Of a DNA stretch of 64,000 bases, positions 6,364 to 31,758 are shown piece by piece. Position 1 is the first letter of the stretch, and each line of letters begins with the position of its first letter. The stretch comes from Pseudomonadota bacterium (GTDB lineage Bacteria; Desulfobacterota; Binatia; UBA9968). The notes beneath the pieces were generated by a model that did not search any database, had not been told where the DNA came from, and was given only the letters and a program-made list of their open reading frames with translations. Made by a program: the position numbers and the translations under genes. The stretch covers positions 83,904-147,903 of the forward strand of contig JAJPJQ010000038.1 of the NCBI GenBank assembly GCA_021324155.1, read 5' to 3'.

Positions 6364-8457
6364 ATGTATTATCACAGTGCTTATCGACTGCCTGCCGGCG
6401 AGACAATTATTACAGCCTGGGAATCGGCACTAGCTGACCTGCGAAACAGCGCGCCGTCTTTAAATCTGCCGGCTGAAACACCTGATGTCTTTCCTCGGTT
6501 CGCTCAAACCTATGTAAAACTATGCAACTTACCTCGAAAAAAGCGAAGAGAGATCCAAAGGGATATTCTCCATACCGGACCGTTGGCAAAAATCCAACTC
6601 AAATCACAACGTCAACTTGCATCATCTTTGGCGGCAGTCGCTCTATTGCTTGCTTTAGCTCAACCCGCCCCCGCAGCAAACATTGCCGTCAATACGAACA
6701 CACCCGCAATTAATGATGGAGACGGTAAATGTTCGCTCATCGAGGCAATCATTAATGCCAACGACGATGCCTCGACTCATCCCGATTGCGCAAAGGGCGA
6801 AGGAGCGGATGTCATTGTATTGCCCGCTGCGAGTATACACGTCGTCGAAGCTGCTTACGGCAATTATCAGGGTGAAACCGCGCTGCCGGTGATAACGAGC
6901 GAGATTACTATCGAGGGGAATAACAGCACGGTGACCCGCCACGTGAGCGAGCCATTGTTTCGTATTTTAGCTGTGCGTAGTGTCGGAAGACTTACACTAC
7001 AAAATTTAACGGTAAGCGGCGGAGCTCAAAACCATGGCGGCGGGATATTCAACAGTGGCACGCTAGCGATTACTAACAGCATTATCACAGGGAACAAAGC
7101 ACAGTATTTTGGTGGAGGTATATTCAATTCCTCCGACGGAGAATTGACAATTGAGACTAGCAGCCTGTCCAAGAATATCGCCAACATGGATGGTGGCGGT
7201 CTATTGGACTGTTACGGTAGTTTCAAGATACAGAACAGTACTATCTCAGGTAACTTCAGTCAGCGTGGTGGCGGCATCCATAAGTTTGATAATCAAATAG
7301 AATACGTCACCCCCACATCTAACTTCCCAAAGTGCAGCGTAACCTCGCACACGGGACTGATTGTTAACAGCACAATTTACGGCAATACCTCATCCGTCGG
7401 CGGCGGCATAGCCAATGGTGGCAAAATAACCATCATCAACAGCACAATCAGCAATAATGTAGCGCTGGCGCAAGGCGGCGGAATCATAAATTATAAACCC
7501 TTCCAAGGTGCTCCCAGTTATCTTTTCGTAGAAAGCAGCACGATTTCTCAGAACATTGCCGGTGACGAGCATTTCGGCTGGGGTGGCGGCATTATGAATC
7601 AATACAATGGCTATCTTTATCTAAGCCGCAGCATCGTCTCAGGTAACAAGGCGCTCACAGGGCCAGAAATAAAAACGGCTAGTGTGAACGATGTTGTTTA
7701 TATCGATGATTTTAATCTTCTTGGAAATAACGGCGACAGCGGACTGTACAATGTATATGTCGGCTACACGGATATTGTCCCTAAACAAAGCCTCAACAAA
7801 ATTCTCGGCCCCCTCAAAAATAACGGCGGCCCTACACTGACTCATGCTTTAGTTCCTGGCAGCCCCGCGTTGGACGCTGCGCCGGTCGATGCGAACTGCC
7901 CGGCGACCGATGGCCGCGGTGTTGCCCGCCCGCAAGGGTCTGCATGCGATATGGGCGCCGTTGAGGGTACTAGTTTGGCACCGGCGCCCCACCCGACCGG
8001 GCACAACTTCGTCGTAAGCTCCGTCAAGGCGCCGAAAACCATCAAGAACGGCGGCGGCACTGCTCCCGTAGCGGTCACGATTCGGAACGCAGGCAATCAA
8101 AACGAGATACTGAGCGATGCGTCCGTGCTCGGCGACGGCGCGACCACGGGCCTCGTCCGCCTGGCGATCGACGTCACCGATACCGACGGCGAGCAATGCC
8201 AGCCTGCGACTGTCTCTTTAGACGGCTCCAAGAATGGGAAGCTCTTCAGCAAGGGAGTGAAGGTCTTGTCCGGCGGCGCATCGTTGACGGTGAATTTTCT
8301 CGTGACGTACCGTTGCGACGCGCCGATGAACAAGCGAAATCCGGAAGCGGGCGACTACCGTAACAGCGCCTCGATATTTCCCGACGAGCTCGACGGCATT
8401 TCCGATTCTAACGCGAGCAGCACAATGGTCGGCGCCGCGACCAAGGTGACGCCATGA
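6364..8457 (+). CDS. Beta-helix / CSLREA / choice-of-anchor-Q-like protein with an extra C-terminal CARDB-like Ig domain (paralog 2, diverged)
   Basis: 697 aa from an ATG with RBS GGGGAGAGGGG. It has the same architecture and a conserved N-domain (MYYHSAYRLPAGETIITAWESALADL...PRFAQTYVKL). An extra ~180-aa C-terminal tail (VSSVKAPKTIKNGGGTAPVAVTIRNAGN...) is CARDB-like. Confidence 0.75.
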   Translation: MYYHSAYRLPAGETIITAWESALADLRNSAPSLNLPAETPDVFPRFAQTYVKLCNLPRKKRREIQRDILHTGPLAKIQLKSQRQLASSLAAVALLLALAQPAPAANIAVNTNTPAINDGDGKCSLIEAIINANDDASTHPDCAKGEGADVIVLPAASIHVVEAAYGNYQGETALPVITSEITIEGNNSTVTRHVSEPLFRILAVRSVGRLTLQNLTVSGGAQNHGGGIFNSGTLAITNSIITGNKAQYFGGGIFNSSDGELTIETSSLSKNIANMDGGGLLDCYGSFKIQNSTISGNFSQRGGGIHKFDNQIEYVTPTSNFPKCSVTSHTGLIVNSTIYGNTSSVGGGIANGGKITIINSTISNNVALAQGGGIINYKPFQGAPSYLFVESSTISQNIAGDEHFGWGGGIMNQYNGYLYLSRSIVSGNKALTGPEIKTASVNDVVYIDDFNLLGNNGDSGLYNVYVGYTDIVPKQSLNKILGPLKNNGGPTLTHALVPGSPALDAAPVDANCPATDGRGVARPQGSACDMGAVEGTSLAPAPHPTGHNFVVSSVKAPKTIKNGGGTAPVAVTIRNAGNQNEILSDASVLGDGATTGLVRLAIDVTDTDGEQCQPATVSLDGSKNGKLFSKGVKVLSGGASLTVNFLVTYRCDAPMNKRNPEAGDYRNSASIFPDELDGISDSNASSTMVGAATKVTP

Positions 8458-10000
8458 ACTACTTCCAGCCCTACTCTCTTCCGGCCGATCAGGCGGTCCT
8501 CGCCGCGTGGGATTCGCAGCTCGCCGAGTTAGCGGACTGCCCTGCTTTCGTCAATGCCCTCGCGAAGCAGCGCGAGTTGTTCCCGCGCTTCGCGGCGCAC
8601 CACGCGCGCCTGCGGGTGCTGCAGCGCGGCACGCGCAGAGCGCTGCAAAGAAAGCTCGGCGAGCGCATGAGCTGATTTCAATTCAACCTGAATCGCAGAG
8701 AAAGCTCGCCGGCTCACTCGCCGGCGCGGCGCTGCTCCTCGCGCTCGCGCAAAGCGCGAGCGCGGCGACAATCAACGTAACGACAAACATCCCCGACATC
8801 AACGACGGCGACGGCAAGTGCTCGCTGATCGAGGCGATCGTTAATGCGAACGACGACGCAGCGACGCATCCCGACTGCGTCACGGGAGACGGGGCGGACA
8901 CGATCGTGCTGCCGAAGAAAGCTAAATTCAATTTTTTCGTAGCAACGATAAAGACACCGATTACAATTCAGGGCAACGACAGTACCTTCGTTCGAACAAC
9001 ATTGACGGTAAACGCTTCGGGAGATTTCAACGTAGATGGGATCAGCGTACTAGGTGGCAAGCGTTGCTTTATAAACGTTGGCGTCCTGACGATCGAGAAC
9101 AGCAAAATTTCAGGCTGTGCATTTGCCAGCGCAGGTGCAGTTTTCAACGGAGGGACTGCCACTATTTCCAACAGTGTTATTTCAGGAAACAAAGCGTATG
9201 GGAATGGCGAATATTCCTGGACAGGAACCGGCGGAGCAGCAATAAATAGCGGCACAATGACGATCCTGAACAGCGAGATATCCGACAACGCGGCGTACGG
9301 GAATGATTTTGGCAGCGCCATTGGCGGCGGCATCGATAATCAGGCTGGTACTCTTATCATTCAAAATAGCACCATAGCTAGGAATCTGGCTATTTCCCAT
9401 TCTCATGATGCTATTGGCGGTGGCATAAGCAATTCGGGCCGTTCATATTTGAGTGTTCGAAACAGCACAATTTCAGGCAACGAAGTGTCCAGAGGGAAGA
9501 GCCGCGGCGGAGGTGTTAACAATTGGGGATATCTTCACGTAGAAAATAGCACGATTACTGGGAATTCAGCCTCTACAGGAGGCGGCGTCGTCAGTTTCAG
9601 TTACGGCCGACCGAACCTCGTCTACCTACGCGAGAATGTTTTCGCTAACAACGAAGCTATCGTTGGTCGGGAAATTTCTACAGATGCCGTAATACAATAC
9701 GATGTTCTGAATTTATTGGGTATTAACGGTGATTCAGGTGTCTACGGCTTCACGCCTGGACCAACCGACATAGTGCCAAACGTTGCGGTTAAGAAAATCC
9801 TTGCTTCCCTAAAAAATAACGGCGGCTCTACCCTCACCCACGCTCTCGTCAAGGGCAGCCCCGCCATCGATGCCGCTCCCGTCGATGCGAATTGTCCGGC
9901 AACCGATCAGCGCGGCGTGGCGCGGCCGCAGGGAGGCGGCTGCGACATCGGCGCGGTGGAGTACACGGGCAAAACCTCGAAGAAGAACAAGAATAATTAG
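8454..10000 (+). pseudogene. Third beta-helix/CSLREA paralog, disrupted by a frameshift between the N-terminal domain and the hydrophobic segment
   Basis: The ATG at 8454 overlaps the paralog-2 stop (ATGA). A 73-codon ORF (8454-8675) encodes an N-domain near-identical to paralog 1. The rest of the protein (ELISIQPESQRKLAGSLAGA...CDIGAVEYTG) continues in another frame, ORF 8507-10000. The region is 1 nt shorter than the paralog-1 counterpart between AAAGAAAGCTCG and ATTTCAATTCAACC. Confidence 0.6.
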
Positions 10001-21625: not shown

Positions 21626-22333
21626 TTAAGGGATATCCGCTTGCGCGGCGGCGCTCATGATCTCGCCTTTCTGCTGGCCTGTGATCACCTTCGCCTTCTT
21701 CAGCACGTTGGTCGCGTGCGCGACGCAGCTTACGAACTGACCGTGATTTTTCGGCGTGCCGGTATTGCCAGGACCGCCGGGACCCGGTTTGCCTGGCTTG
21801 CCGTTAGGGCCGCCCTTGGGCTTTTTCAACGCTGCCTGCGTGCCTGGCGTGACGCCGGCGCAAGCCTGAATCGTCGTCGCAAGCGACTCGGCGAGGCTGC
21901 AGCCGGTGGGAAGAATCGTATCGCCGAAACCCGATAGCGTGATATCGCCGATCACAAGATCGCCGCCCTCGATCGTCGCAGGGCACTGGTCGACGCCGTT
22001 GGCGACCCCATCGCCGTCGCAGTCGGCCGCAGCATCGAGGTTATTACAGGTGTCGCTCCCATTGGGGATGCCGTCGTTATCGCAGTCGGCCAGCGGGTCC
22101 AGGTTATTGCAGGTATCGTTGCCGTTAGGAACGCCGTCGCTGTCGCAGTCGGCCGCCGGGTCGAGGTTGTTACAGGTGTCGGTGCCGTTCGGTATACCGT
22201 CGTTGTCGCAGTCGGCCGCCGGGTCTAGTGGGTCGCACGTGGTGACCTGAGCCCGGACCGGCATCGGCCGATAGCCGACAAATAGCGCCAGCAGTAGCGC
22301 GCTTAAAACCCTGATTACTTTCTTGCTCGCCAT
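21626..22333 (-). CDS. Secreted calcium-binding protein with four thrombospondin type-3-like repeats
   Basis: Start MASKKVIRVLSALLLALFVG (RBS GGGAGGTG). 4x 21-aa repeats DP(A/L)ADCDNDG(I/V)PNGxDTCNNL. The C-terminal Gly/Pro-rich region contains the only GPxGKPGKPGPxG collagen-like tripeptide run in the window. Confidence 0.7.
   Translation of the reverse strand: MASKKVIRVLSALLLALFVGYRPMPVRAQVTTCDPLDPAADCDNDGIPNGTDTCNNLDPAADCDSDGVPNGNDTCNNLDPLADCDNDGIPNGSDTCNNLDAAADCDGDGVANGVDQCPATIEGGDLVIGDITLSGFGDTILPTGCSLAESLATTIQACAGVTPGTQAALKKPKGGPNGKPGKPGPGGPGNTGTPKNHGQFVSCVAHATNVLKKAKVITGQQKGEIMSAAAQADIP
21976..22234 (-). repeat. Tandem 63-bp coding repeats (x4) encoding TSP3-like repeats
   Basis: Near-identical nucleotide repeats GTCGC(T/A)GTCGCAGTCGGCCGC...GGTGTC visible on the plus strand. 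Confidence 0.6.
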
Positions 22334-22545
22334 AATCCGCACCTCCCGAAAGTGGTATTGCTGCGAGGGAAGTGAAAGCACGATTTATGCCGGGACATCG
22401 GGTGTTGAAAGTCGGCCGTAAAGCGCGCTATTACACCATATTTTTCGCGCAAAATTTTGAGATCGAGGCGCAAAAAGGCGTCAAGGCGGGCATACAGTGT
22501 AGGGTTCGATTCTCCAATGAATGGGAAACCCTACAGATGACGCAT

Positions 22546-24162
22546 TTAGGGATCAACGGGATCAGGCCGAGAACGCACAAAATGAAGCGGCAGGATTTTT
22601 CCCCTCGGGCTCGCGTATGGCGCCTCGCGGCTGATTCTGAAAGTACCCGCTTCGGCCCAAATTTTCGTTTGGAATGCATTGCCTCGCTGCCCGCGCCCGA
22701 GTTCTTCCCGCAATCGTGTCAAAAGCCGCCGCTCGTCGATCCCCGACACGACGGGATGGACGCGCAGCGTTAGGCGCGTCTGTCCGCCCGCGTCTTCTTC
22801 CTCGACGAGCTGATAATCGCCGGGCGCGCCGCCGAATTCGCGGGGCAGCTCGCTTTCGAAGAAATCGTGCAGGTCGCCGTAAAAGTAATTCATGCCTTCG
22901 CTGGTGAATTTCTCGTAGCTGCGAATGTGGTGCAGGTGTAATTTCAGGCCCACCCGCTCGAATGCGCAGCCGCAGTTTCTAGTTTCGAACGTCGCATAGT
23001 CGCCGTTGGCGACGTTCAGGAGCAACTTGGCGTATCCGTCGTGAAGCGTCGTGCAAAGAAGCCGCGGCATGCGCGATGCGCCCCCTTCGATCGAAACAGG
23101 AAACGCAATGACCGCCAGCCGATGTTGCTGCACATGCATGTCATCTACATGACCCGGGTTCGCGCATGCCATCGCTACCGAGCCGCCGCCTTCGAAGGCA
23201 TAATCCGTCACGGCAGCGGCGCCGACGCTCGCGATGGCGGCGCGCTTCGCTTCGGTAAAAGGCTCGCCGCCAAGATGAAATTTCGTGCCCTCGATAGCGA
23301 TGCCCTTTTGTCCCGCCGCTTTCGCGATTCTCGTCGCGTTGCTGGCGCTGGTCTTGATGCAGCAGTTTCTTCCATTCCGTTTCACTTCGTTGATCCAGGC
23401 GACGATGCGGTCGACCTCCTCCAATGAGGTAAACTCCGGCCTTGCGGCGCCGGGACCATAGATATTGGCCATCGCGATAAAGAGATGCGTCATGCAAGTA
23501 TTGTAAAGCCGCGAGGCGCTGTTGCTCGTCGGCATACGACGCGCAAACCAGCGCTCTGTCGGGATACCGAGACGCGCGTGCTGCACGATCGCGCGTATCC
23601 CTCCGCCCGAGGGTAGAATCGCCTCGAAGATACCGTGAGCGCGGGAGAAAAGATCGTGCGCGGAATAAAATAAACAATGCGAAGACGTCCGTTCGCCCCA
23701 GCGCTCGAGCGAGCCGACCGACGCGATCGGCGCATTGTTGGTCCCGCTGCTGCGCGTGGTCACGCCCACGGACGGCGCGGGCGGCGCGAAATCGCTCGGA
23801 GAGACCCGAAACGACAGGCTTCCTCGGACAACATCGGTTTTTCCCTTGAACTCATCCGCCATGAAGTACACGCCTTCTTTCGCGAGCTTCTCCAGACTCT
23901 CTTCCACGCCGTCGCGCATGACCGCGTCTCTCAGATCGCCGAGTCCACAGCCCGCCATCTTGAATAGCTTGAGGTATGGGCTTCTCGGCCAATCGAAAAT
24001 GTGTCGCTGCGCCAGGTCGAGAAATCTCTCTGCGCGCGATGCGAGCGCGAGGCGGACCGCGGCCTCCGCTTGTTCGATGGTCACGCGTTGACGGAAAAAA
24101 GCGGGTAGCGCCCGGAGCAGGCGGTAATTCTGTTGGATGCGACTTTGCAGATCGTTAGTCAA
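22546..24162 (-). CDS. Putative adenylate-forming enzyme, PaaK/CapK/F390-synthetase-like (family assignment tentative)
   Basis: 538 aa. TTG start preceded by AGGTGG. SSGT-containing segment and overall size fit PaaK-like ligases. No firm motif match is possible by eye. Confidence 0.45.
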   Translation of the reverse strand: MTNDLQSRIQQNYRLLRALPAFFRQRVTIEQAEAAVRLALASRAERFLDLAQRHIFDWPRSPYLKLFKMAGCGLGDLRDAVMRDGVEESLEKLAKEGVYFMADEFKGKTDVVRGSLSFRVSPSDFAPPAPSVGVTTRSSGTNNAPIASVGSLERWGERTSSHCLFYSAHDLFSRAHGIFEAILPSGGGIRAIVQHARLGIPTERWFARRMPTSNSASRLYNTCMTHLFIAMANIYGPGAARPEFTSLEEVDRIVAWINEVKRNGRNCCIKTSASNATRIAKAAGQKGIAIEGTKFHLGGEPFTEAKRAAIASVGAAAVTDYAFEGGGSVAMACANPGHVDDMHVQQHRLAVIAFPVSIEGGASRMPRLLCTTLHDGYAKLLLNVANGDYATFETRNCGCAFERVGLKLHLHHIRSYEKFTSEGMNYFYGDLHDFFESELPREFGGAPGDYQLVEEEDAGGQTRLTLRVHPVVSGIDERRLLTRLREELGRGQRGNAFQTKIWAEAGTFRISREAPYASPRGKILPLHFVRSRPDPVDP

Positions 24163-24183
24163 AAAACGCCACCTGGCCGCCGG

Positions 24184-24438
24184 CTAGTAGTGGATGCCCG
24201 TTCGTTCGCAACGATCAGCACCGCTTGCGCCAGGGGAAGAAATCCTCCTGCTCGAGGTCGGGAGATCGAGGAATCTTTTTTCGCGATCATCCAGCAGGCG
24301 GCGAATGCGCTCCTCGGCTTTATCGGAAGCGATACGCTCGCGCAAAAATTCGGGCATAGCTTTCGCCAGCCGGTAATTTTGCCGCGCCCGTTGTCTCAAC
24401 TCAGAGGCGAACTCGCGGTAGGATCGTTGAAACGGCAT
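24184..24438 (-). pseudogene. 84-codon ORF that duplicates the N-terminal ~50 aa of the downstream 538-aa gene (partial tandem duplication / gene remnant)
   Basis: ASELRQRARQNYRLAKAMPEFLRERIASDKAEERIRRLLDDREKRFLDL aligns with TNDLQSRIQQNYRLLRALPAFFRQRVTIEQAEAAVRLALASRAERFLDL. It is in the same frame as the downstream gene, separated by a TAG and 8 codons. Confidence 0.4.
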
Positions 24439-24446
24439 CGGCGAGG

Positions 24447-25607
24447 TCAGGGCTTGACGATCAGCGACGGCTCTTCTTTCGCCTTCTGCTTCGCCTGGGC
24501 GAGATAGTACGCGATGCTTTTTTGCACGAGGCCGGTAAGAAATGCGATATCGAGCATTCCGATGCCGCCTTCGGCGAGCTGAAGCGCGACCGCGAGCGCG
24601 AGCAGCGCCGGCTCGCGCCGCCCCCCTTCCGCCAGGCACCACGACGCGTCTTCCAACCGGCGGCGGAAAATCGCGCCGCTCTCGCCGGCAAATATTTCCC
24701 GCGCCGCGTCGCGGACGATCGCCGCGAGCCGCTCTTCTTTCTGCGCGTCGTTCAGCACGAGCCGGCTTTCCTGCGCCTGCTCGATGCGGTCGATGTAAGG
24801 CTTCATCCAGTCTTCGTCGACGAGCCAAAAGCGAAACGCCGGATCTTCGAGCAGCCGGCGCGAGCGGCCGCGCCAATCCTCGCTCTGCGCCGAGTCTTTC
24901 GCCAACCGGCTGTATATCGGATGCTCGACTTCGCGCGCCTTCGCCGCGTTGAACGCCGCGCGCATCGAGGCGAACTGTCCGGTTTTCTGGCCCGCAGCCT
25001 TCGCCTTCTCGTAGGCGTTATAAAGGATTCCGTCCGCATAGTCCCACGGCGCCGGCGCCATCGGGAGATTGGCGTTCTTTTGAATTTCCTCGGCCTGCGC
25101 GCGCAGATCTTTTCGTTTGACGACCCCGCCGTCGGCCTGGAGCAGGCCGGTGCGGTCGCTCACTACGCCCTGGAGCAGCTGGAGACCGCCGCCGGCGTGC
25201 GGCCTGACGAGCCAGACGAGGCGGTCGCCGGCGCCGTCGATGATCGTGAGATAGCCTTCGATGTCCGACATCGGCGCGACCGCGGATCGTTTGCCGCCTG
25301 ACGCGTCTTCCGCGCGCGTGACCGTCAAACCGCGCTGCTCCAGCTTGAACAGCGACCGGCGCGCCTCGCGCTTGAGATCTTTTGCCGTCGCGGCCGTCTC
25401 GATTTTGATCAGCGCCTCGACGGCGGCGGGATCGGCTATGCGGCCGAGGAGAAACGCGACGGCGAGATCGACGGCGGGGCTTTCTCCCAGCCGCCGCGTG
25501 AGCGGCCCGATCGACGCCGCCGCGAGCGCCGCCTGGTCGAATCCGGTTTGCTGAAGCTCTTCCAGCCCGCGCTTCAGCGCGGCTTCGCGCGCGTCTTTCT
25601 TCGCCAT
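24447..25607 (-). CDS. Hypothetical protein (386 aa, mostly helical, no recognisable domain)
   Basis: Clean ATG start MAKKDAREAAL. Codirectional with and immediately upstream of the duplicated fragment and ligase-like gene. Confidence 0.55.
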   Translation of the reverse strand: MAKKDAREAALKRGLEELQQTGFDQAALAAASIGPLTRRLGESPAVDLAVAFLLGRIADPAAVEALIKIETAATAKDLKREARRSLFKLEQRGLTVTRAEDASGGKRSAVAPMSDIEGYLTIIDGAGDRLVWLVRPHAGGGLQLLQGVVSDRTGLLQADGGVVKRKDLRAQAEEIQKNANLPMAPAPWDYADGILYNAYEKAKAAGQKTGQFASMRAAFNAAKAREVEHPIYSRLAKDSAQSEDWRGRSRRLLEDPAFRFWLVDEDWMKPYIDRIEQAQESRLVLNDAQKEERLAAIVRDAAREIFAGESGAIFRRRLEDASWCLAEGGRREPALLALAVALQLAEGGIGMLDIAFLTGLVQKSIAYYLAQAKQKAKEEPSLIVKP

Positions 25608-25725
25608 CTTCCTATTATGTTAGCAAAAACGAGATCAATCGGGAGGACTTGCGGAAGGCGCAGAATTGAAACCGGCCCTTACATCGCGCAATTGCAACGA
25701 CGCACGCGAGTCCTTTATCGGCGAA

Positions 25726-26664
25726 TCAGCCCATTTTCAGCAGGTCCGCCTTCTTGCCGGGACGTCCGGCGATCGTGAAGTTCGGCCACTCCTCGACGTT
25801 CGCGCCGCGATAATTCTCGCGCACCCATTTGACGATGTCGCCGGCGCGCGCGAACCAGACTTTCGAGTGGCCCTTTGCGTAGCGGATGAACTCGCGCAGG
25901 AGGATCGCCCGGAACGGCCGGCCGCCGACGAAAGGATGATTGCCCCAGATCATGAATTTGGGATCGCTCTCCCCTTCTTCGTACAGGCAGTCGAACGTGT
26001 CCTTCCACATTTGCAGCAGATCGCGCGGCGTGCGCCCGGCGCGCTGGTAGCTCGAGTAGTCGTTCAGATCCTGAAAATACGACAGCACCGTCAGTTCCTT
26101 GTTTTTCACCTTCAAAGTGTAAGGCGTCTCGTTGTGCTGCGGGTCCATCCAATAGGTGTAACCGAGATCGGCGATGATCTCGACGGTGTCGGCGCTCGGC
26201 GCGACGCCGGTCGAGAGATAGCCGAGCGGCGGCTTGCCGACGACTTTCTTGACGACTTCGACCGTGCGCTGGAGGTCCTTTTTTTCCTGCGCCGGTTTTT
26301 TCATGTAGCTGTAGTCGTGGATCCACGTTTCCGTGCCGATCTCGTGGCCGTCGGCAACGGCTTCTTTGATGACGTCGGGATAATTCTCGATCGTGATGCC
26401 GGTCGGGAACCAGCTCGTCTGAATGTTTTCCTTGCGAAAGACTTCCAGAAACCGGAAGACGCCGACGCGCTCGCCGAACTCGCGGTCGGTAATCGTCGCG
26501 AGGCTTTTTTTCGTCACCGCGTCCTTGGGGTAGCCGCGGCGATTTTCCTGCTGCTTCGAACCTGCGCTCCCGAGATCCTCGGGCCAGGTCTCGAACGCGA
26601 CGCATGGCGTGATCGCGATGCGCGCTCCGTCGGGCCATTTGATCGGCGTTCTTTTTTGCTTCAT
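25726..26664 (-). CDS. Polysaccharide deacetylase family protein (NodB homology)
   Basis: Start MKQKRTPIKWP with RBS GGGAGGGA. NodB-type motifs (TFDDG-like region, HDYSYM). Confidence 0.7.
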   Translation of the reverse strand: MKQKRTPIKWPDGARIAITPCVAFETWPEDLGSAGSKQQENRRGYPKDAVTKKSLATITDREFGERVGVFRFLEVFRKENIQTSWFPTGITIENYPDVIKEAVADGHEIGTETWIHDYSYMKKPAQEKKDLQRTVEVVKKVVGKPPLGYLSTGVAPSADTVEIIADLGYTYWMDPQHNETPYTLKVKNKELTVLSYFQDLNDYSSYQRAGRTPRDLLQMWKDTFDCLYEEGESDPKFMIWGNHPFVGGRPFRAILLREFIRYAKGHSKVWFARAGDIVKWVRENYRGANVEEWPNFTIAGRPGKKADLLKMG

Positions 26665-26784: not shown

Positions 26785-27225
26785 ATGGGAATGTTAAAAA
26801 TTGACGGCGTGACGCACTGGTCGATTCCCGTCAACGATCTCGACGAGGCGGAGCGGTTCTACGGCGAAGTCCTCGGGCTTGAGCACAAGGGAAGGCTCGG
26901 CAGCTCGAAGATGTCCTGCTTCGCCGCGGGCAGTCACTCGATTCTCCTCTGCCAGCGCAAGGAAGCGCTCGAGCGCACGCCGGAGCAGGACAATCGCCTG
27001 CACCACGCGTTCGATGTCAGTCCGGAGATGTTCGAGCAGGCATGCAAAGTCTTCGAGCGCATCGGCGTCAAGATCGCCGAGCCGATCGTCTACCGCGCGA
27101 AAGGCCACTTCACCGGCCGGGAGCTTTATTTTCTCGACCCGAGCGGCAACATGCTGGAACTCCGCGACGCGAGCTGGAAAACCGGCATGCCGACGCCGAC
27201 GTTCGAGGATATCGTCAGCAATTAG
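26785..27225 (+). CDS. VOC-family (glyoxalase/bleomycin-resistance/extradiol dioxygenase fold) protein
   Basis: 146 aa. RBS AGGAGG. The sequence and size fit VOC-family proteins. Confidence 0.7.
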   Translation: MGMLKIDGVTHWSIPVNDLDEAERFYGEVLGLEHKGRLGSSKMSCFAAGSHSILLCQRKEALERTPEQDNRLHHAFDVSPEMFEQACKVFERIGVKIAEPIVYRAKGHFTGRELYFLDPSGNMLELRDASWKTGMPTPTFEDIVSN

Positions 27226-27256: not shown

Positions 27257-28357
27257 TTACGGCCGGCTTGAAAAGTACTTGTCGTAAATACGTTGGTAGC
27301 CGCCGTTCTCTTTGAGCGTCAACAAGGCATTGTTGACGTGCAATCGATACGGACTGTTCTGCGGAAAAACGATCCCGTAGCTTTCCTTCCGGAAAATCGG
27401 GCCGACGAGGGCGACTTTTCCTTTTCCCTGGTGCGCCGCATAATACAGCAGGACCGGCGAGTCGAAAACGACGGCGTCGGCCTGCCCCTTCAGCAGCGCC
27501 TCGTACGCCTGCTCGATTCTGGGAAATTCCGTCACCGAAATATCTCGCTGGCGTAAATAGAGCGCCGAGGTGCTGCCCGTCGTCGTCGCGACCTGCTTCC
27601 CGGGAAGATCCTCCGGCCCCTTGATGTCGCCTTGCAGCTGCTGGACCGTCAGCGAGCTGGTGACGCTCGCGGTGAAATACGCGACGAAAAGAACGCTCGT
27701 AAACATCCACAGCACGGCGATCGCGCGCCCGAATGCGCTGCGCGGCATCTGGTCCGCCTGCGTCGCGAGCGTCGACGCCGCCCACCAGCACGCCTCGAAG
27801 ATACCCGGAAAATACGTGTGGTGCTCGATCATGCCGTGCGGGTGCCGGCACTCCGACCACCAGATAAAATGCGCCGGCACGAGAATAAACAGCAGCGTCA
27901 ATCCCACGAACGGCAGGACCGCGGAAGACCACATGAGCCTGAGCGTCTCGCCGACGGAGCCGCCGCCCGGCTCGTCGCGGACCATGATCTGCAGCCCCGC
28001 GTCGAACATCGGCTGGGAAAAGTCGAAGTCGTTGCTGCGCTCGGCCGTTACGGAGATCGCCGCGATGCCGAGATCGGCTTTTCCCGTTTTGACGGAGTCG
28101 AGCAGCTCCGGCACCGTCGCATGCTCCGCGTAGGTGCTAGAGAGCCGCAGCTCCTGCGCAATCGCGTCCCAGAGATCGACGCTGAAGCCGGTGAGCCGGT
28201 TGTTTTCTTTAAAGACGAAGGGCGGGATTTCGCGCGTGGCGACGCGCAGCTGCTTCGCGGGCGCCGCGGCGTCGACCGCGGCCGGCAACAATCCACCGAA
28301 GAGAGCGAAAAGCGCGATCGCGAAGATCGCTATGCGAACGCGATCAATACTCCCCAT
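27257..28357 (-). CDS. Ionotropic glutamate receptor-like ligand-gated channel. A periplasmic SBP_bac_3-type ligand-binding domain is interrupted by an M1-pore loop-M2 channel module (GluR0-like architecture)
   Basis: Start MGSIDRV (ORF extends to 28501 via an R/K-rich artefact). The pore region GIFEACWWAASTLATQADQMPRSAFGRAIAVLWMFTSVLFVAYFTASVTSSLTV parallels the eukaryotic iGluR consensus FGIFNSLWFSLGAFMQQG...[34 protein letters not shown]. No M4 helix, no TxVGYG filter. Confidence 0.75.
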   Translation of the reverse strand: MGSIDRVRIAIFAIALFALFGGLLPAAVDAAAPAKQLRVATREIPPFVFKENNRLTGFSVDLWDAIAQELRLSSTYAEHATVPELLDSVKTGKADLGIAAISVTAERSNDFDFSQPMFDAGLQIMVRDEPGGGSVGETLRLMWSSAVLPFVGLTLLFILVPAHFIWWSECRHPHGMIEHHTYFPGIFEACWWAASTLATQADQMPRSAFGRAIAVLWMFTSVLFVAYFTASVTSSLTVQQLQGDIKGPEDLPGKQVATTTGSTSALYLRQRDISVTEFPRIEQAYEALLKGQADAVVFDSPVLLYYAAHQGKGKVALVGPIFRKESYGIVFPQNSPYRLHVNNALLTLKENGGYQRIYDKYFSSRP

Positions 28358-29237
28358 CGTGCCCGCGCGCCGCATCCGCCGCCTTATGCTCCGCCTTCGC
28401 GTGTTCGGTTGTGCTTTGTTCGCCTTTCGCCTGCTCGGTACTCTGTTCGGCTTTCGCCTTTTCTTCGCTCTTGAGATTCTCGGCCTTCGGGCCGAAAGCA
28501 ATCAGCGGATCGTCCCCCGCTTTGAGCGTCGAAGCAATCTTATCCAGAGCCCAAAATCTTTCCGGCGCGGTAGGATGGGTCGAAAGAAATCCGCGCTCGG
28601 TGCTGCCGGGCATCTCGATCGCGATCCGCTTGAAGACCTCTTTTCCCTCGCCGACGTTGTAGCCGGCGCGGTGCGCCCACAACAGACCGTACAGGTCCGC
28701 CTCGCGCTCGCGGTCGCGGTCGAACTTGGCGGTCGCGAGCTGCACCATGCGCGCGGCGACCTGCTGTCCGATGTTGCCGCCGAAAACTCCCGCGGGGATC
28801 GATAACGCGGTTCCGAAAACGTCTTGCACCACGCCCTGGCGGACATGGCCGCGGAGCGCGTGTCCGATCTCGTGGCCGAGCACGGCGGCCAGCTCGTCGT
28901 CGTTCTTGAGGAAGCGCAGCATACCGCGCGTAATCCACACGGTCTTGCCGTCGGTCCACGCATTGACGGCGTCGAGATTGATTTGCGACGCCTTCACTTG
29001 ATCGGTGCGCGCGGCGAAGACGAAATGGATCACCGACTGCGTTCCGGTCGCCTCAATGAGCCGGCCGGCGACTTCCTCGACGCGCGCCTGCTGCTTCTGC
29101 TGCCATTCTTTGGATTGGGCCTCGAGCTGCTCTTTGATTTTCTTTTCCTCTTCGGAGGTGATGCGCGGGACGTTGTTGACGCACGCCGGCAGCGCGCAAA
29201 CGAACAACAAAAGCACGAGTTTGACACTTCGTCTCAT
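28344..29237 (-). CDS. M48-family zinc metallopeptidase lipoprotein (HExxH)
   Basis: Start MRRSVKLVLLLFVCALPAC (lipobox). HEIGHAL motif. The 3' end overlaps the iGluR-like gene start by 14 nt. Confidence 0.75.
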   Translation of the reverse strand: MRRSVKLVLLLFVCALPACVNNVPRITSEEEKKIKEQLEAQSKEWQQKQQARVEEVAGRLIEATGTQSVIHFVFAARTDQVKASQINLDAVNAWTDGKTVWITRGMLRFLKNDDELAAVLGHEIGHALRGHVRQGVVQDVFGTALSIPAGVFGGNIGQQVAARMVQLATAKFDRDREREADLYGLLWAHRAGYNVGEGKEVFKRIAIEMPGSTERGFLSTHPTAPERFWALDKIASTLKAGDDPLIAFGPKAENLKSEEKAKAEQSTEQAKGEQSTTEHAKAEHKAADAARGHDGEY

Positions 29238-29389: not shown

Positions 29390-30181
29390 ATGGCGAACGA
29401 AAAGGCGGTGGAGTATCGCGTGGAGAACGGCGTTGCGCTCGTCGAGCTCAACCGGCCGCCGGTCAACAGCTACACGCACGAGCTCTTGCGCGAGCTCGAC
29501 GACGCGATCCTCCAGGCGCGCTTCGACGACAACGTTCATGTGCTGGTGCTGACCGGAAAAGTCGAAAAGTTTTTTTCCGCCGGCGCCGACATCAACATGC
29601 TCGCGAACAAGCCGCTTTCGTTTAAGAATAATTTCGCGCTCCACGGGCACGAAGTGCTCATGCGGCTCGAAAACACGCCCAAGCTCGCCATCGCGGCGAT
29701 CAACGGCCACGCCGTCGGCGGCGGCCTCGAGATCGCGATGGCGTGCGACATCCGCATCGCGCGCAAGGAAGGCGGCCGGATGGGGCTGGCCGAGATCAAT
29801 TTGGGCGTCATGCCGGGCATGGGCGGGACGCAGCGGCTGCCGCGGCTCGTCGGCAAAGGGCGCGCGCTCGAGCTCTGCGCGACCGGCCGCACGATCGCGT
29901 TCGAAGAGGCGCTCGAGATCGGGCTCATTCATTACATCTACGAGCGCGAGAACTTCCTCGGCCAGGTGATGGACTATGCGCGCCAGTTCGTTACGCCCAA
30001 CAAGGCGAGCCTCGCCGTCGGCAAGGTCAAGCGCGCGGTGCAGACCGGCTGGGAGCTCTCGCTCCCCGACGGCCTCGCGTTCGAGCGCGAAGTGCTGGCG
30101 CAGACCTTCGGCAGCGAAGACGGCAACGAAGGCGTCAAAGCGTACATCGAAAAAAGAACCGCGCAGTTCAAGGGCAGATAA
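29390..30181 (+). CDS. Enoyl-CoA hydratase/isomerase (crotonase) family protein
   Basis: 263 aa. RBS GCGGAGG. VLTGKVEKFFSAGADI and GHAVGGGLEIAMACD crotonase motifs. Confidence 0.85.
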   Translation: MANEKAVEYRVENGVALVELNRPPVNSYTHELLRELDDAILQARFDDNVHVLVLTGKVEKFFSAGADINMLANKPLSFKNNFALHGHEVLMRLENTPKLAIAAINGHAVGGGLEIAMACDIRIARKEGGRMGLAEINLGVMPGMGGTQRLPRLVGKGRALELCATGRTIAFEEALEIGLIHYIYERENFLGQVMDYARQFVTPNKASLAVGKVKRAVQTGWELSLPDGLAFEREVLAQTFGSEDGNEGVKAYIEKRTAQFKGR

Positions 30182-30294: not shown

Positions 30295-31758
30295 ATGGCG
30301 AAGATGTTGATCGGCGGCGAATCGGTCGATTCCGTGAGCGGCCAGACATATGAAGTCCGCAACCCCGCGACCGGCGAGGTCGTCGACAAAGTTCCCAAAG
30401 GCAATGAGAAGGACGTCGAACAGGCGATCGGCGCCGCGGAGACCGCCTTCAAGGAATGGTCCGACGTCACCGCCGAAGACCGCGGCAAGATGCTCGAGAA
30501 CGCCTGCGAGCTGATCAAGCAAAAGCAGGGCGACATCGCGCAGGCGCTGACGAAGGAGCAAGGAAAAACGCTCTTCGAAGCCGGCCTGGAGATTCATCAC
30601 CTGCTGCACGGCCTCGAATTTTACGCCGGGCTCGCGTCGAAAGTCCGCGGCGCGCACGTCCCGCTGCCGCAGAAAAACGCCTACGGCATGGTCGTGCGCC
30701 AGCCGATCGGCGTTTGCGCCGGCATCGTTCCGTGGAATTTTCCGCTCACGCTGATGGGGACGAAATTGGGTCCGGCGCTCGCGGCGGGCAACACGATCAT
30801 CGTCAAGCCTGCGAGCACGACGCCGCTCGCGACGCTGCTCGCGATCGAGCAAATCCAGAAAGCGACCTACGGCGAGGGTAAGGCGCAAAAGACGCTGCCC
30901 AAAGGCGCCGTCAACGTCGTGACCGGCCCGGGCGGCACCGTCGGCGAAGAGATTCTAAAGAACCCGCGCATCCGCCGCATCGCCTTCACCGGCTCGACGC
31001 CGGTCGGCAGACATGTCATGGAAGTCGCGGGCCGAGAGATCAAGCGCGTCACGCTTGAGCTCGGCGGCAGCGACCCGATGATCGTCATGGACGACGCCAA
31101 TCTCGACCTCGCGATCAAAATGGCCGACATCGGCCGATTCTTCAACTGCGGCCAGATGTGCCTCGGCGTCAAGCGCCTGTTCCTGCAGGAATCGATCGCG
31201 GAATCGTTCGTCGGCAAGCTGACCGAGATTCTGAAGACCAAGACAGTCGGCAACGGCGCCAGCAAAGAGACGCGCATGGGGCCGATCCACATCGAATCGC
31301 AGCGCAAAGAGATCGAGGAGCAGGTCGAGGACGCGAAGTCGCGCGGCGCGAAAGTCGTCTTCGGCGGCGAGCGGCCCAAAGGCGGCGATTTCGACAAGGG
31401 CTATTTCTATCTGCCGACGCTGCTCACGAACGTGCCGGAGGATTCCAAAGTCAGCACCGAGGAGACTTTCGGGCCGGTGCTGCCGGTGTTCACGTTCAAG
31501 ACGCTCGACGAGGCGATCGAGAAAGCGAACCGCTCGATCTTCGGCCTCGGCTCTTCGATCTGGACCAGGAGCCTCGCCAGCGCCAACAGGGCGATCGACA
31601 GGCTCCAGGCCGGCAACGTCTGGGTCAACTCGCTTCACTACGGCTACGACGAGCTGCCGTTCGGCGGCGTGAAGCAGAGCGGGATCGGACGCGAGCACGG
31701 CCCCGAGGCGCTCGATTACTATCTCGAGCCCAAAGGCGTGGTGATCGTAAACGTATAA
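30295..31758 (+). CDS. NAD(P)-dependent aldehyde dehydrogenase
   Basis: 487 aa. RBS GGAGGA. ALDH motifs (VPWNFPL, ELGGSDP, catalytic C in FFNCGQMC). Confidence 0.85.
   Translation: MAKMLIGGESVDSVSGQTYEVRNPATGEVVDKVPKGNEKDVEQAIGAAETAFKEWSDVTAEDRGKMLENACELIKQKQGDIAQALTKEQGKTLFEAGLEIHHLLHGLEFYAGLASKVRGAHVPLPQKNAYGMVVRQPIGVCAGIVPWNFPLTLMGTKLGPALAAGNTIIVKPASTTPLATLLAIEQIQKATYGEGKAQKTLPKGAVNVVTGPGGTVGEEILKNPRIRRIAFTGSTPVGRHVMEVAGREIKRVTLELGGSDPMIVMDDANLDLAIKMADIGRFFNCGQMCLGVKRLFLQESIAESFVGKLTEILKTKTVGNGASKETRMGPIHIESQRKEIEEQVEDAKSRGAKVVFGGERPKGGDFDKGYFYLPTLLTNVPEDSKVSTEETFGPVLPVFTFKTLDEAIEKANRSIFGLGSSIWTRSLASANRAIDRLQAGNVWVNSLHYGYDELPFGGVKQSGIGREHGPEALDYYLEPKGVVIVNV

Follow-up and report, generated by a model that had tools for sequence, protein, structure and literature searches.

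A short open reading frame beside a PaaK-like gene of the Binatia is probably the scar of a 2.5-kb deletion

The window analysed here, a stretch of 64,000 nucleotides of contig JAJPJQ010000038.1 from a member of the Binatia, contains an 84-codon open reading frame (ORF) directly ahead of a gene for a PaaK-like protein of 538 amino acids. The small ORF, the 538-residue gene, and its Shine-Dalgarno sequence all lie on the minus strand. We read the small ORF as the scar of a deletion of about 2.5 kb, which removed another PaaK-like gene, here called A-type, together with a gene for an NMT1-like binding protein, and which left the 538-residue B-type gene intact; we give this reading a probability of about 0.93. 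The original prediction had traced the small ORF to the 538-residue gene itself, part of whose 5' end would have been duplicated in tandem; a nonsense mutation would then have cut off the older upstream copy, and translation would have moved to a newly recruited internal TTG.

The small ORF and the 538-residue gene share one frame (tblastn frame -2 for both) and resemble each other at their N-termini. Residues 12–59 of the small-ORF product align in BLASTP with residues 3–50 of the 538-residue protein with 22 of 48 positions identical (46%, E 5e-13), a similarity far above chance, and the DNA can be aligned across the same span, which confirms the proposed homology at both levels. The TTG start and the ribosome-binding AGGTGG, located 6 nucleotides ahead of the TTG, are both present as described. 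The in-frame position of the TAG shortly before the TTG also holds; the intervening distance had been given as eight codons, and it is seven sense codons (PAARWRF), corresponding to 21 nucleotides from the end of the ORF to the TTG.

The closest relative of the small ORF is not its neighbour. Its 84-residue product was compared with the 120 best homologues of the 538-residue protein. Residues 1–59, aligned from Met1, are 88% identical to P0064 (543 residues), 76% to P0114, and 73% to P0097, three proteins that share just about 51% identity with the 538-residue protein. The adjacent gene ranks only about 39th among 118 family matches of the small ORF. Because of these identities, compared with 46% to the neighbour, the small ORF is assigned to the N-terminus of a different, A-type paralogue. 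The remnant DNA is about 80% identical to the 5' ends of the A-type genes in locus L003, which is the contig of P0097, and in L001, the upstream stop and spacer included. The nucleotide match stops at ...TTCCTCGATCTC, and the point at which the A-type homology breaks off reads ...CTCGATCTC. The 59 native codons correspond to the first three helices of the N-terminal helical domain of the family. The resemblance of the small ORF to the 538-residue protein is thus, as far as the sequences indicate, ordinary paralogy and not a recent self-duplication. It looked like the latter because the next gene downstream is the surviving paralogue, read in the frame of the small ORF.

The closest relative of the window is L007, a locus of the Candidatus Binatia metagenome-assembled genome (MAG) SMAG_U3751, which has a nucleotide identity of about 90% and aligns collinearly with the window to the left and right of the small ORF. 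Blastn matches window positions 31704–24252 to L007 1–7406 (90% identity), 24261–22059 to L007 9898–12101 (83%), and 22162–18008 to L007 11935–16089 (91%). The window lacks any equivalent of L007 7407–9897, a segment of 2.49 kb that consists of codons 60–543 of the A-type gene, the following spacer, and the NMT1-like gene without its last approximately 15 codons. The L007 A-type gene (7218–8849) encodes 543 residues and starts with MPFQRSYREFATEL..., and the NMT1-like gene occupies positions 8880–9941. Orthologous loci had been proposed as the place to look for a single longer gene; L007 instead has three separate full genes. The product of the deleted middle gene matches the NMT1 family of Pfam (E 7e-24) and thus resembles NMT1/THI5-like periplasmic binding proteins (Pfam PF09084, PF13379); it begins with MRLTVILARCALLLAVAGSC..., which by eye resembles an N-terminal signal peptide. 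In contrast to such complete proteins, the window keeps just the last approximately 15 codons.

These codons directly adjoin the A-type remnant. The 47 nucleotides past the remnant align with the last part of the binding-protein gene in L007 and in L005, the contig of P0003, which is an 85% orthologue of the B-type gene. The alignment of the window with L005 continues beyond this gene end, across the spacer, and into the B-type gene. After ...RFLDL, the other frame of the window reads PDLEQEDFFPWRKRC followed by a stop, and the gene upstream of the B-type gene ends with ...VVAELEEEGFFQWRKR in L005 and with ...AELEEEGFFRSRKR in L007, in both cases before the stop codon. The binding-protein tail (…DLEQEDFFPWRKRC and stop) and the A-type remnant are in different frames. 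The 3' part of the small ORF is the out-of-frame binding-protein tail, and its end is attributed to the deletion junction and not to a nonsense mutation. The peptide DLEQEDFFPW after ...RFLDL had also been considered as frameshifted family homology, given the similar DLAQRHIFDW of the 538-residue protein; this was rejected when L005 and L007 identified the segment as a binding-protein 3' end. The L007 breakpoints, …GATCTTGCCCGAACG… and …GGTCGCCGAGCTGG…, each contain CCGA, and the window reads …GATCTCCCGACCTCGAG…. The breakpoint can be resolved only to about 24262–24252.

The order of genes in other relatives gives the polarity of the change. In L003, a glyoxalase gene on the opposite strand is followed by a polysaccharide deacetylase gene, a gene for a 386-residue protein (p386), a 541-residue A-type gene, and an NMT1-like binding-protein gene. 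The window keeps this order from position 27225 down to 24447, and after p386 there is just the small ORF. The succession of p386, a full-length A-type gene of 541–543 residues, and a binding-protein gene occurs in seven loci (L003, L007, L010, L021, L032, L036, and L060), six of which belong to Candidatus Binatia genomes, and the complete block from glyoxalase to NMT1 is found whole or in part in all seven. Because these seven loci keep full genes, the presence of the A-type and binding-protein genes is ancestral, and the window carries the deleted state. None of the syntenic loci has an adjacent gene for an ABC permease or ATPase. Orthologues of p386 in L003, L007, L010, L021, L036, L049, and L060 are 58–87% identical, share many invariant residues, and always precede an A-type gene. 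Pfam and NCBIfam scans of p386 returned nothing above threshold, just sub-threshold hints of HEAT repeats.

The ancestral operon would have consisted, on the minus strand, of p386, the A-type PaaK-like gene (543 residues), the NMT1-like binding-protein gene (approximately 340 residues), and the B-type gene (538 residues). A single deletion of about 2.49 kb then probably placed the final approximately 15 codons of the binding-protein gene directly behind A-type codon 59, in a different frame, with the join at or near the short CCGA microhomology; microhomology-mediated illegitimate recombination is the probable mechanism. The outcome would be a chimeric ORF of 59 native and 25 junk codons, which stops at a chance TAG, whereas the spacer, Shine-Dalgarno sequence, and TTG of the B-type gene would have remained untouched (Table 1). 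The locus is similar to gene remnants left by short-homology deletions in bacterial operons in that relatives have full genes in the syntenic position, two adjacent genes are reduced to terminal fragments between intact neighbours, and the two fragments meet in different frames at a few shared bases. Nothing essential differs; the one unusual trait is that the gene right behind the scar is an in-frame surviving paralogue.

Table 1. Features of the locus in window coordinates
Feature	Position	Strand	Remark
386-residue gene p386, ends ...EEPSLIVKP and stop	24447..25607	-	conserved upstream partner; synteny anchor
84-codon chimeric ORF	24184..24438	-	ATG 24438, TAG 24186-24184; would span the deletion junction
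Remnant, codons 1-59 of the probable lost A-type PaaK-like paralogue	24262..24438	-	equivalent to L007 7218-7394
Probable deletion junction	24258..24261	.	CCGA at both breakpoints in L007
Binding-protein gene remnant, last ~15 codons and TGA (24217-24215)	24215..24261	-	frame differs from small ORF
Original binding-protein/B-type spacer	24163..24214	-	contains Shine-Dalgarno AGGTGG 24174-24169
538-residue B-type gene, intact, Pfam-less PaaK-like	22546..24162	-	ancestral TTG start at 24162

The start region of the B-type gene is conserved in its orthologues. An identically spaced pair of AGGTG and TTG occurs in the window (CCAGGTGGCGTTTTTTGACT), L007 (TCAGGTGATTGTTTGACC), and L005 (CGAGGTGGATGTTTTGTCT), where 52, 59, and 51 nucleotides, respectively, separate the binding-protein stop from the TTG. 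In both L007 and L005, an intact binding-protein gene, or the intact end of one, still precedes the orthologue. The conservation of TTG and AGGTG in both marks this start codon as ancestral and not as one recruited after a truncation. An Rfam scan of positions 24050–24550 returned one sub-threshold chance match and no family above threshold. A promoter scan of positions 22300–25800 found none, and the spacer contains no sigma-70-like promoter.

Several observations weigh against the deletion reading or limit what can be drawn from it. The breakpoint and the microhomology are derived from a relative that is 10–17% diverged and not from the parental sequence. The contigs that carry the deletion are all identical, and some may come from related samples, so that the deleted lineage offers no divergence that would reveal decay of the remnant. 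The ratio of nonsynonymous to synonymous substitution rates (dN/dS) of the 59 remnant codons relative to the intact L007 copy is 0.08, lower than the 0.19 calculated for both p386 and the B-type gene against L007. Such a low value is compatible with a retained function, although a recent deletion explains it: it indicates that most of the divergence of the remnant predates the deletion, and it suggests a recent event. Compared with L007 7218–7394, the synonymous divergence (dS) of the remnant is 1.23, over 42 synonymous sites, as opposed to 0.33 for p386 and 0.49 for the 538-residue gene; allele exchange among paralogues or noise are possible causes.

Three other explanations were weighed against the deletion. 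Self-duplication followed by nonsense truncation and TTG recruitment draws on the homology, adjacency, and common frame of the two N-terminal segments, and there is next to no chance that it is correct: a much closer paralogue exists elsewhere, the 3' part of the ORF is not family sequence, the corresponding place in L007 is occupied by three full genes, and the TTG is conserved in orthologues that lack the upstream fragment. An assembly or sequencing artefact, such as a chimeric join or a collapsed path, deserves consideration in metagenome assemblies, in which the many family paralogues per genome can confuse assemblers. The junction lies outside paralogous sequence, however, with family codon 59 meeting an unrelated binding-protein gene at approximately four shared nucleotides. 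Furthermore, the 284 nucleotides from the p386 stop to the TTG, junction included, are exactly reproduced in four additional contigs, which differ in assembly and source (JGI 3300039526; GCA_037025705.1, in a 115-kb contig; GCA_037025685.1; Logan SRR5581483), all of which are 100% identical to the window along their full length. We therefore regard an artefact as very improbable.

The remnant could alternatively have been exapted, with the 84-residue protein translated through the coupling to p386 that the ancestral operon had, and serving as a small helical protein that regulates p386 or the surviving paralogue or acts as a decoy for either, or with its translation only delivering ribosomes to the TTG. 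The ATG, its 8-nucleotide distance from the upstream stop, and the 59 native codons are intact, the family-invariant A, R, F, and L are kept, the dN/dS is low, and the ORF stops just 21 nucleotides before the TTG. The final 25 codons are nevertheless out-of-frame junk, the low dN/dS is equally well explained by a recent deletion, the identical copies of the scar provide no signal of selection, and the B-type gene has its own Shine-Dalgarno sequence and does not need a new coupling. Nor did a database search with the 84-residue product reveal a conserved small-gene family: it returned just the ORF itself (P0270), which is called as a gene only in the lineage of the window, and P0271, a chimeric paralogue fragment, which leaves the separate regulatory or decoy peptide that had been offered as an alternative unsupported. 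P0271 (111 residues) has an A-type N-terminus identical to that of P0064 up to approximately residue 94, fused to ...RSEERRVGKEGRSRWSP, and is apparently a chimeric contig end and not a real protein. We consider exaptation very unlikely, and only marginally better odds attach to the broader proposal that the 84-residue product is still translated and retained, as a three-helix module that binds the surviving enzyme or a partner, or as a means of tuning the expression of the TTG gene. The remnant of the deletion probably has no function of its own.

The surviving B-type gene is intact and encodes a protein with hundreds of homologues of about 540 residues, of which the named ones come nearly all from Candidatus Binatia or 'Deltaproteobacteria' metagenome bins. 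None of the homologues has a Pfam domain on record. Pfam and NCBIfam scans, whose profiles include AMP-binding, GH3, and LuxE, gave nothing significant for the 538- and 84-residue products, and the 538-residue protein has no match to Pfam AMP-binding (PF00501) or NCBIfam PaaK even at E <= 1. By the criteria of its sequence, the protein thus appears to stand outside the curated families. A single-sequence search of the PDB found nothing, and a profile of 60 family members gave weak matches to phenylacetate-CoA ligases (9s3l, E 0.0012; 4r1l, E 0.028). A tblastn match of the protein at window positions 29693–29977 is weak, lies inside an enoyl-CoA hydratase gene, and was dismissed as chance. A literature search on this PaaK-like family found nothing.

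The structure predicted by AlphaFold2 from the 60-sequence alignment has a mean predicted local distance difference test score (pLDDT) of 85.3 and a predicted template modelling score (pTM) of 0.86, with low confidence at residues 519–538. The model can be divided into an extra helical domain formed by the first approximately 95 residues, a large N-terminal domain, and a small C-terminal domain, and it has a predicted ANL fold closest to the structures of PaaK enzymes. The closest known systems are PaaK-family adenylate-forming enzymes of the ANL superfamily, namely the phenylacetate-CoA ligases PaaK1/PaaK2 (PDB: 2y27, 2y4n, 2y4o), BT_0428 (4r1l, 4r1m), ClxA (9s3l), NatL2 (6siw, 6six), and 2-hydroxyisobutyryl-CoA ligase (6he0, 6hdw). 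The best Foldseek matches in the PDB all belong to the PaaK family, with 4r1m and 2y27 (E about 1e-14) followed by 2y4o, NatL2 (6six), and 2-hydroxyisobutyryl-CoA ligase (6he0). Structure-comparison scores were 23.8 for 4r1l_A (380 residues aligned), 20.2 for ClxA 9s3l, 19.3 for 6siw, 18.8 for 6hdw, 16.6 for EhpF, and about 12–14 for other ANL enzymes. The tentative PaaK-like assignment of the original prediction is therefore supported at the level of the fold.

Residues invariant in the family cluster into S138/S139/G140, N383/G387/D388, C397-G398-C399, R414/S415/K418, and G521/K522; across the 60 sequences G521 and K522 never vary, and S138, S139, and G140 vary rarely or not at all. The SSGT segment (residues 138–141 of the 538-residue protein) aligns with the P-loop SSGTTG of PaaK, the GD...CGC of the family aligns with RD...CxC of PaaK, and the family has an invariant GK close to its C-terminus. 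G521-K522 may be the C-terminal catalytic-lysine motif, but a profile of the C-terminal domain matched no PaaK chain in the PDB, and both residues fall into the low-confidence end of the model. The identity to PaaK-family enzymes is only 13–17%, and the protein is about 100 residues longer than PaaK and has about 95 additional helical residues at its N-terminus. Relative to the P-loop motif [ST][ST]G[ST][ST]G.PK, the 538-residue protein reads SSGTNNAP and the family SSGTxNxP, without the second glycine and the lysine. The hinge motif reads IRSYEKFTSEGMNY, whereas the equivalent motif of PaaK is GRxDD-like. The 538-residue protein most likely works as a PaaK-type adenylate-forming ligase on some carboxylate, as the model suggests, and adenylation would proceed by analogy with PaaK-family enzymes.

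An exhaustive profile search for the family found 2,571 clusters (at 50% identity) with E <= 1e-3, of which 976 had E <= 1e-30. Genomes of the Binatia carry many copies, in several bins on different contigs. One Candidatus Binatia MAG contig (JBGPGE010000075.1, L018:4711-18201) packs seven PaaK-like paralogues into 19 kb, interspersed with a single NMT1-like gene. The NMT1-like binding protein is the sole recurrent partner of the family (10 of the 121 same-strand neighbours of 96 copies), and these neighbours gave no clue to the substrate. In P0205 (857 residues), one of the representative sequences from the search, a PaaK-like domain (residues 4–520) is fused to an NMT1/NMT1_2 domain (551–772). 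The recurrent adjacency and the P0205 fusion suggest a link between the PaaK-like family and NMT1-like proteins.

The loss of the A-type and binding-protein genes fits turnover in a family of paralogues that expands and contracts, and the joint loss of a paralogue and a binding protein points to a copy number in flux. The scar itself is ordinary gene loss, and the enzyme family is the more useful by-product: likely adenylate-forming enzymes of an uncultured soil and sediment lineage, with a confidently predicted PaaK-like fold. This Pfam-less PaaK-like clade, with its tandem copies in Binatia and its repeated pairing or fusion with NMT1-like proteins, may carry out undescribed chemistry. In a paralogue-rich genome, a short ORF that looks like the beginning of the gene after it is more probably what is left of a lost neighbour than a self-duplication, and the 84-residue 'hypothetical protein' of the public record deserves to be flagged as a pseudogene fragment.

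Two further features lie near the locus. The gene at 21626–22381 on the minus strand encodes an Asp-rich product with thrombospondin type 3 repeats, and it contains, at window positions 22016–22225, a 63-nucleotide tandem repeat of 3.3 copies with 80% matches. The blastn matches between the window and L007 are staggered at this repeat, the number of which may differ between relatives. On the other side of p386, a 414-residue ORF at 27257–28501, also on the minus strand, combines SBP_bac_3 and Lig_chan-Glu_bd domains with a Lig_chan/Ion_trans_2 pore and is, by this domain content, a predicted prokaryotic glutamate-receptor-like ligand-gated channel.

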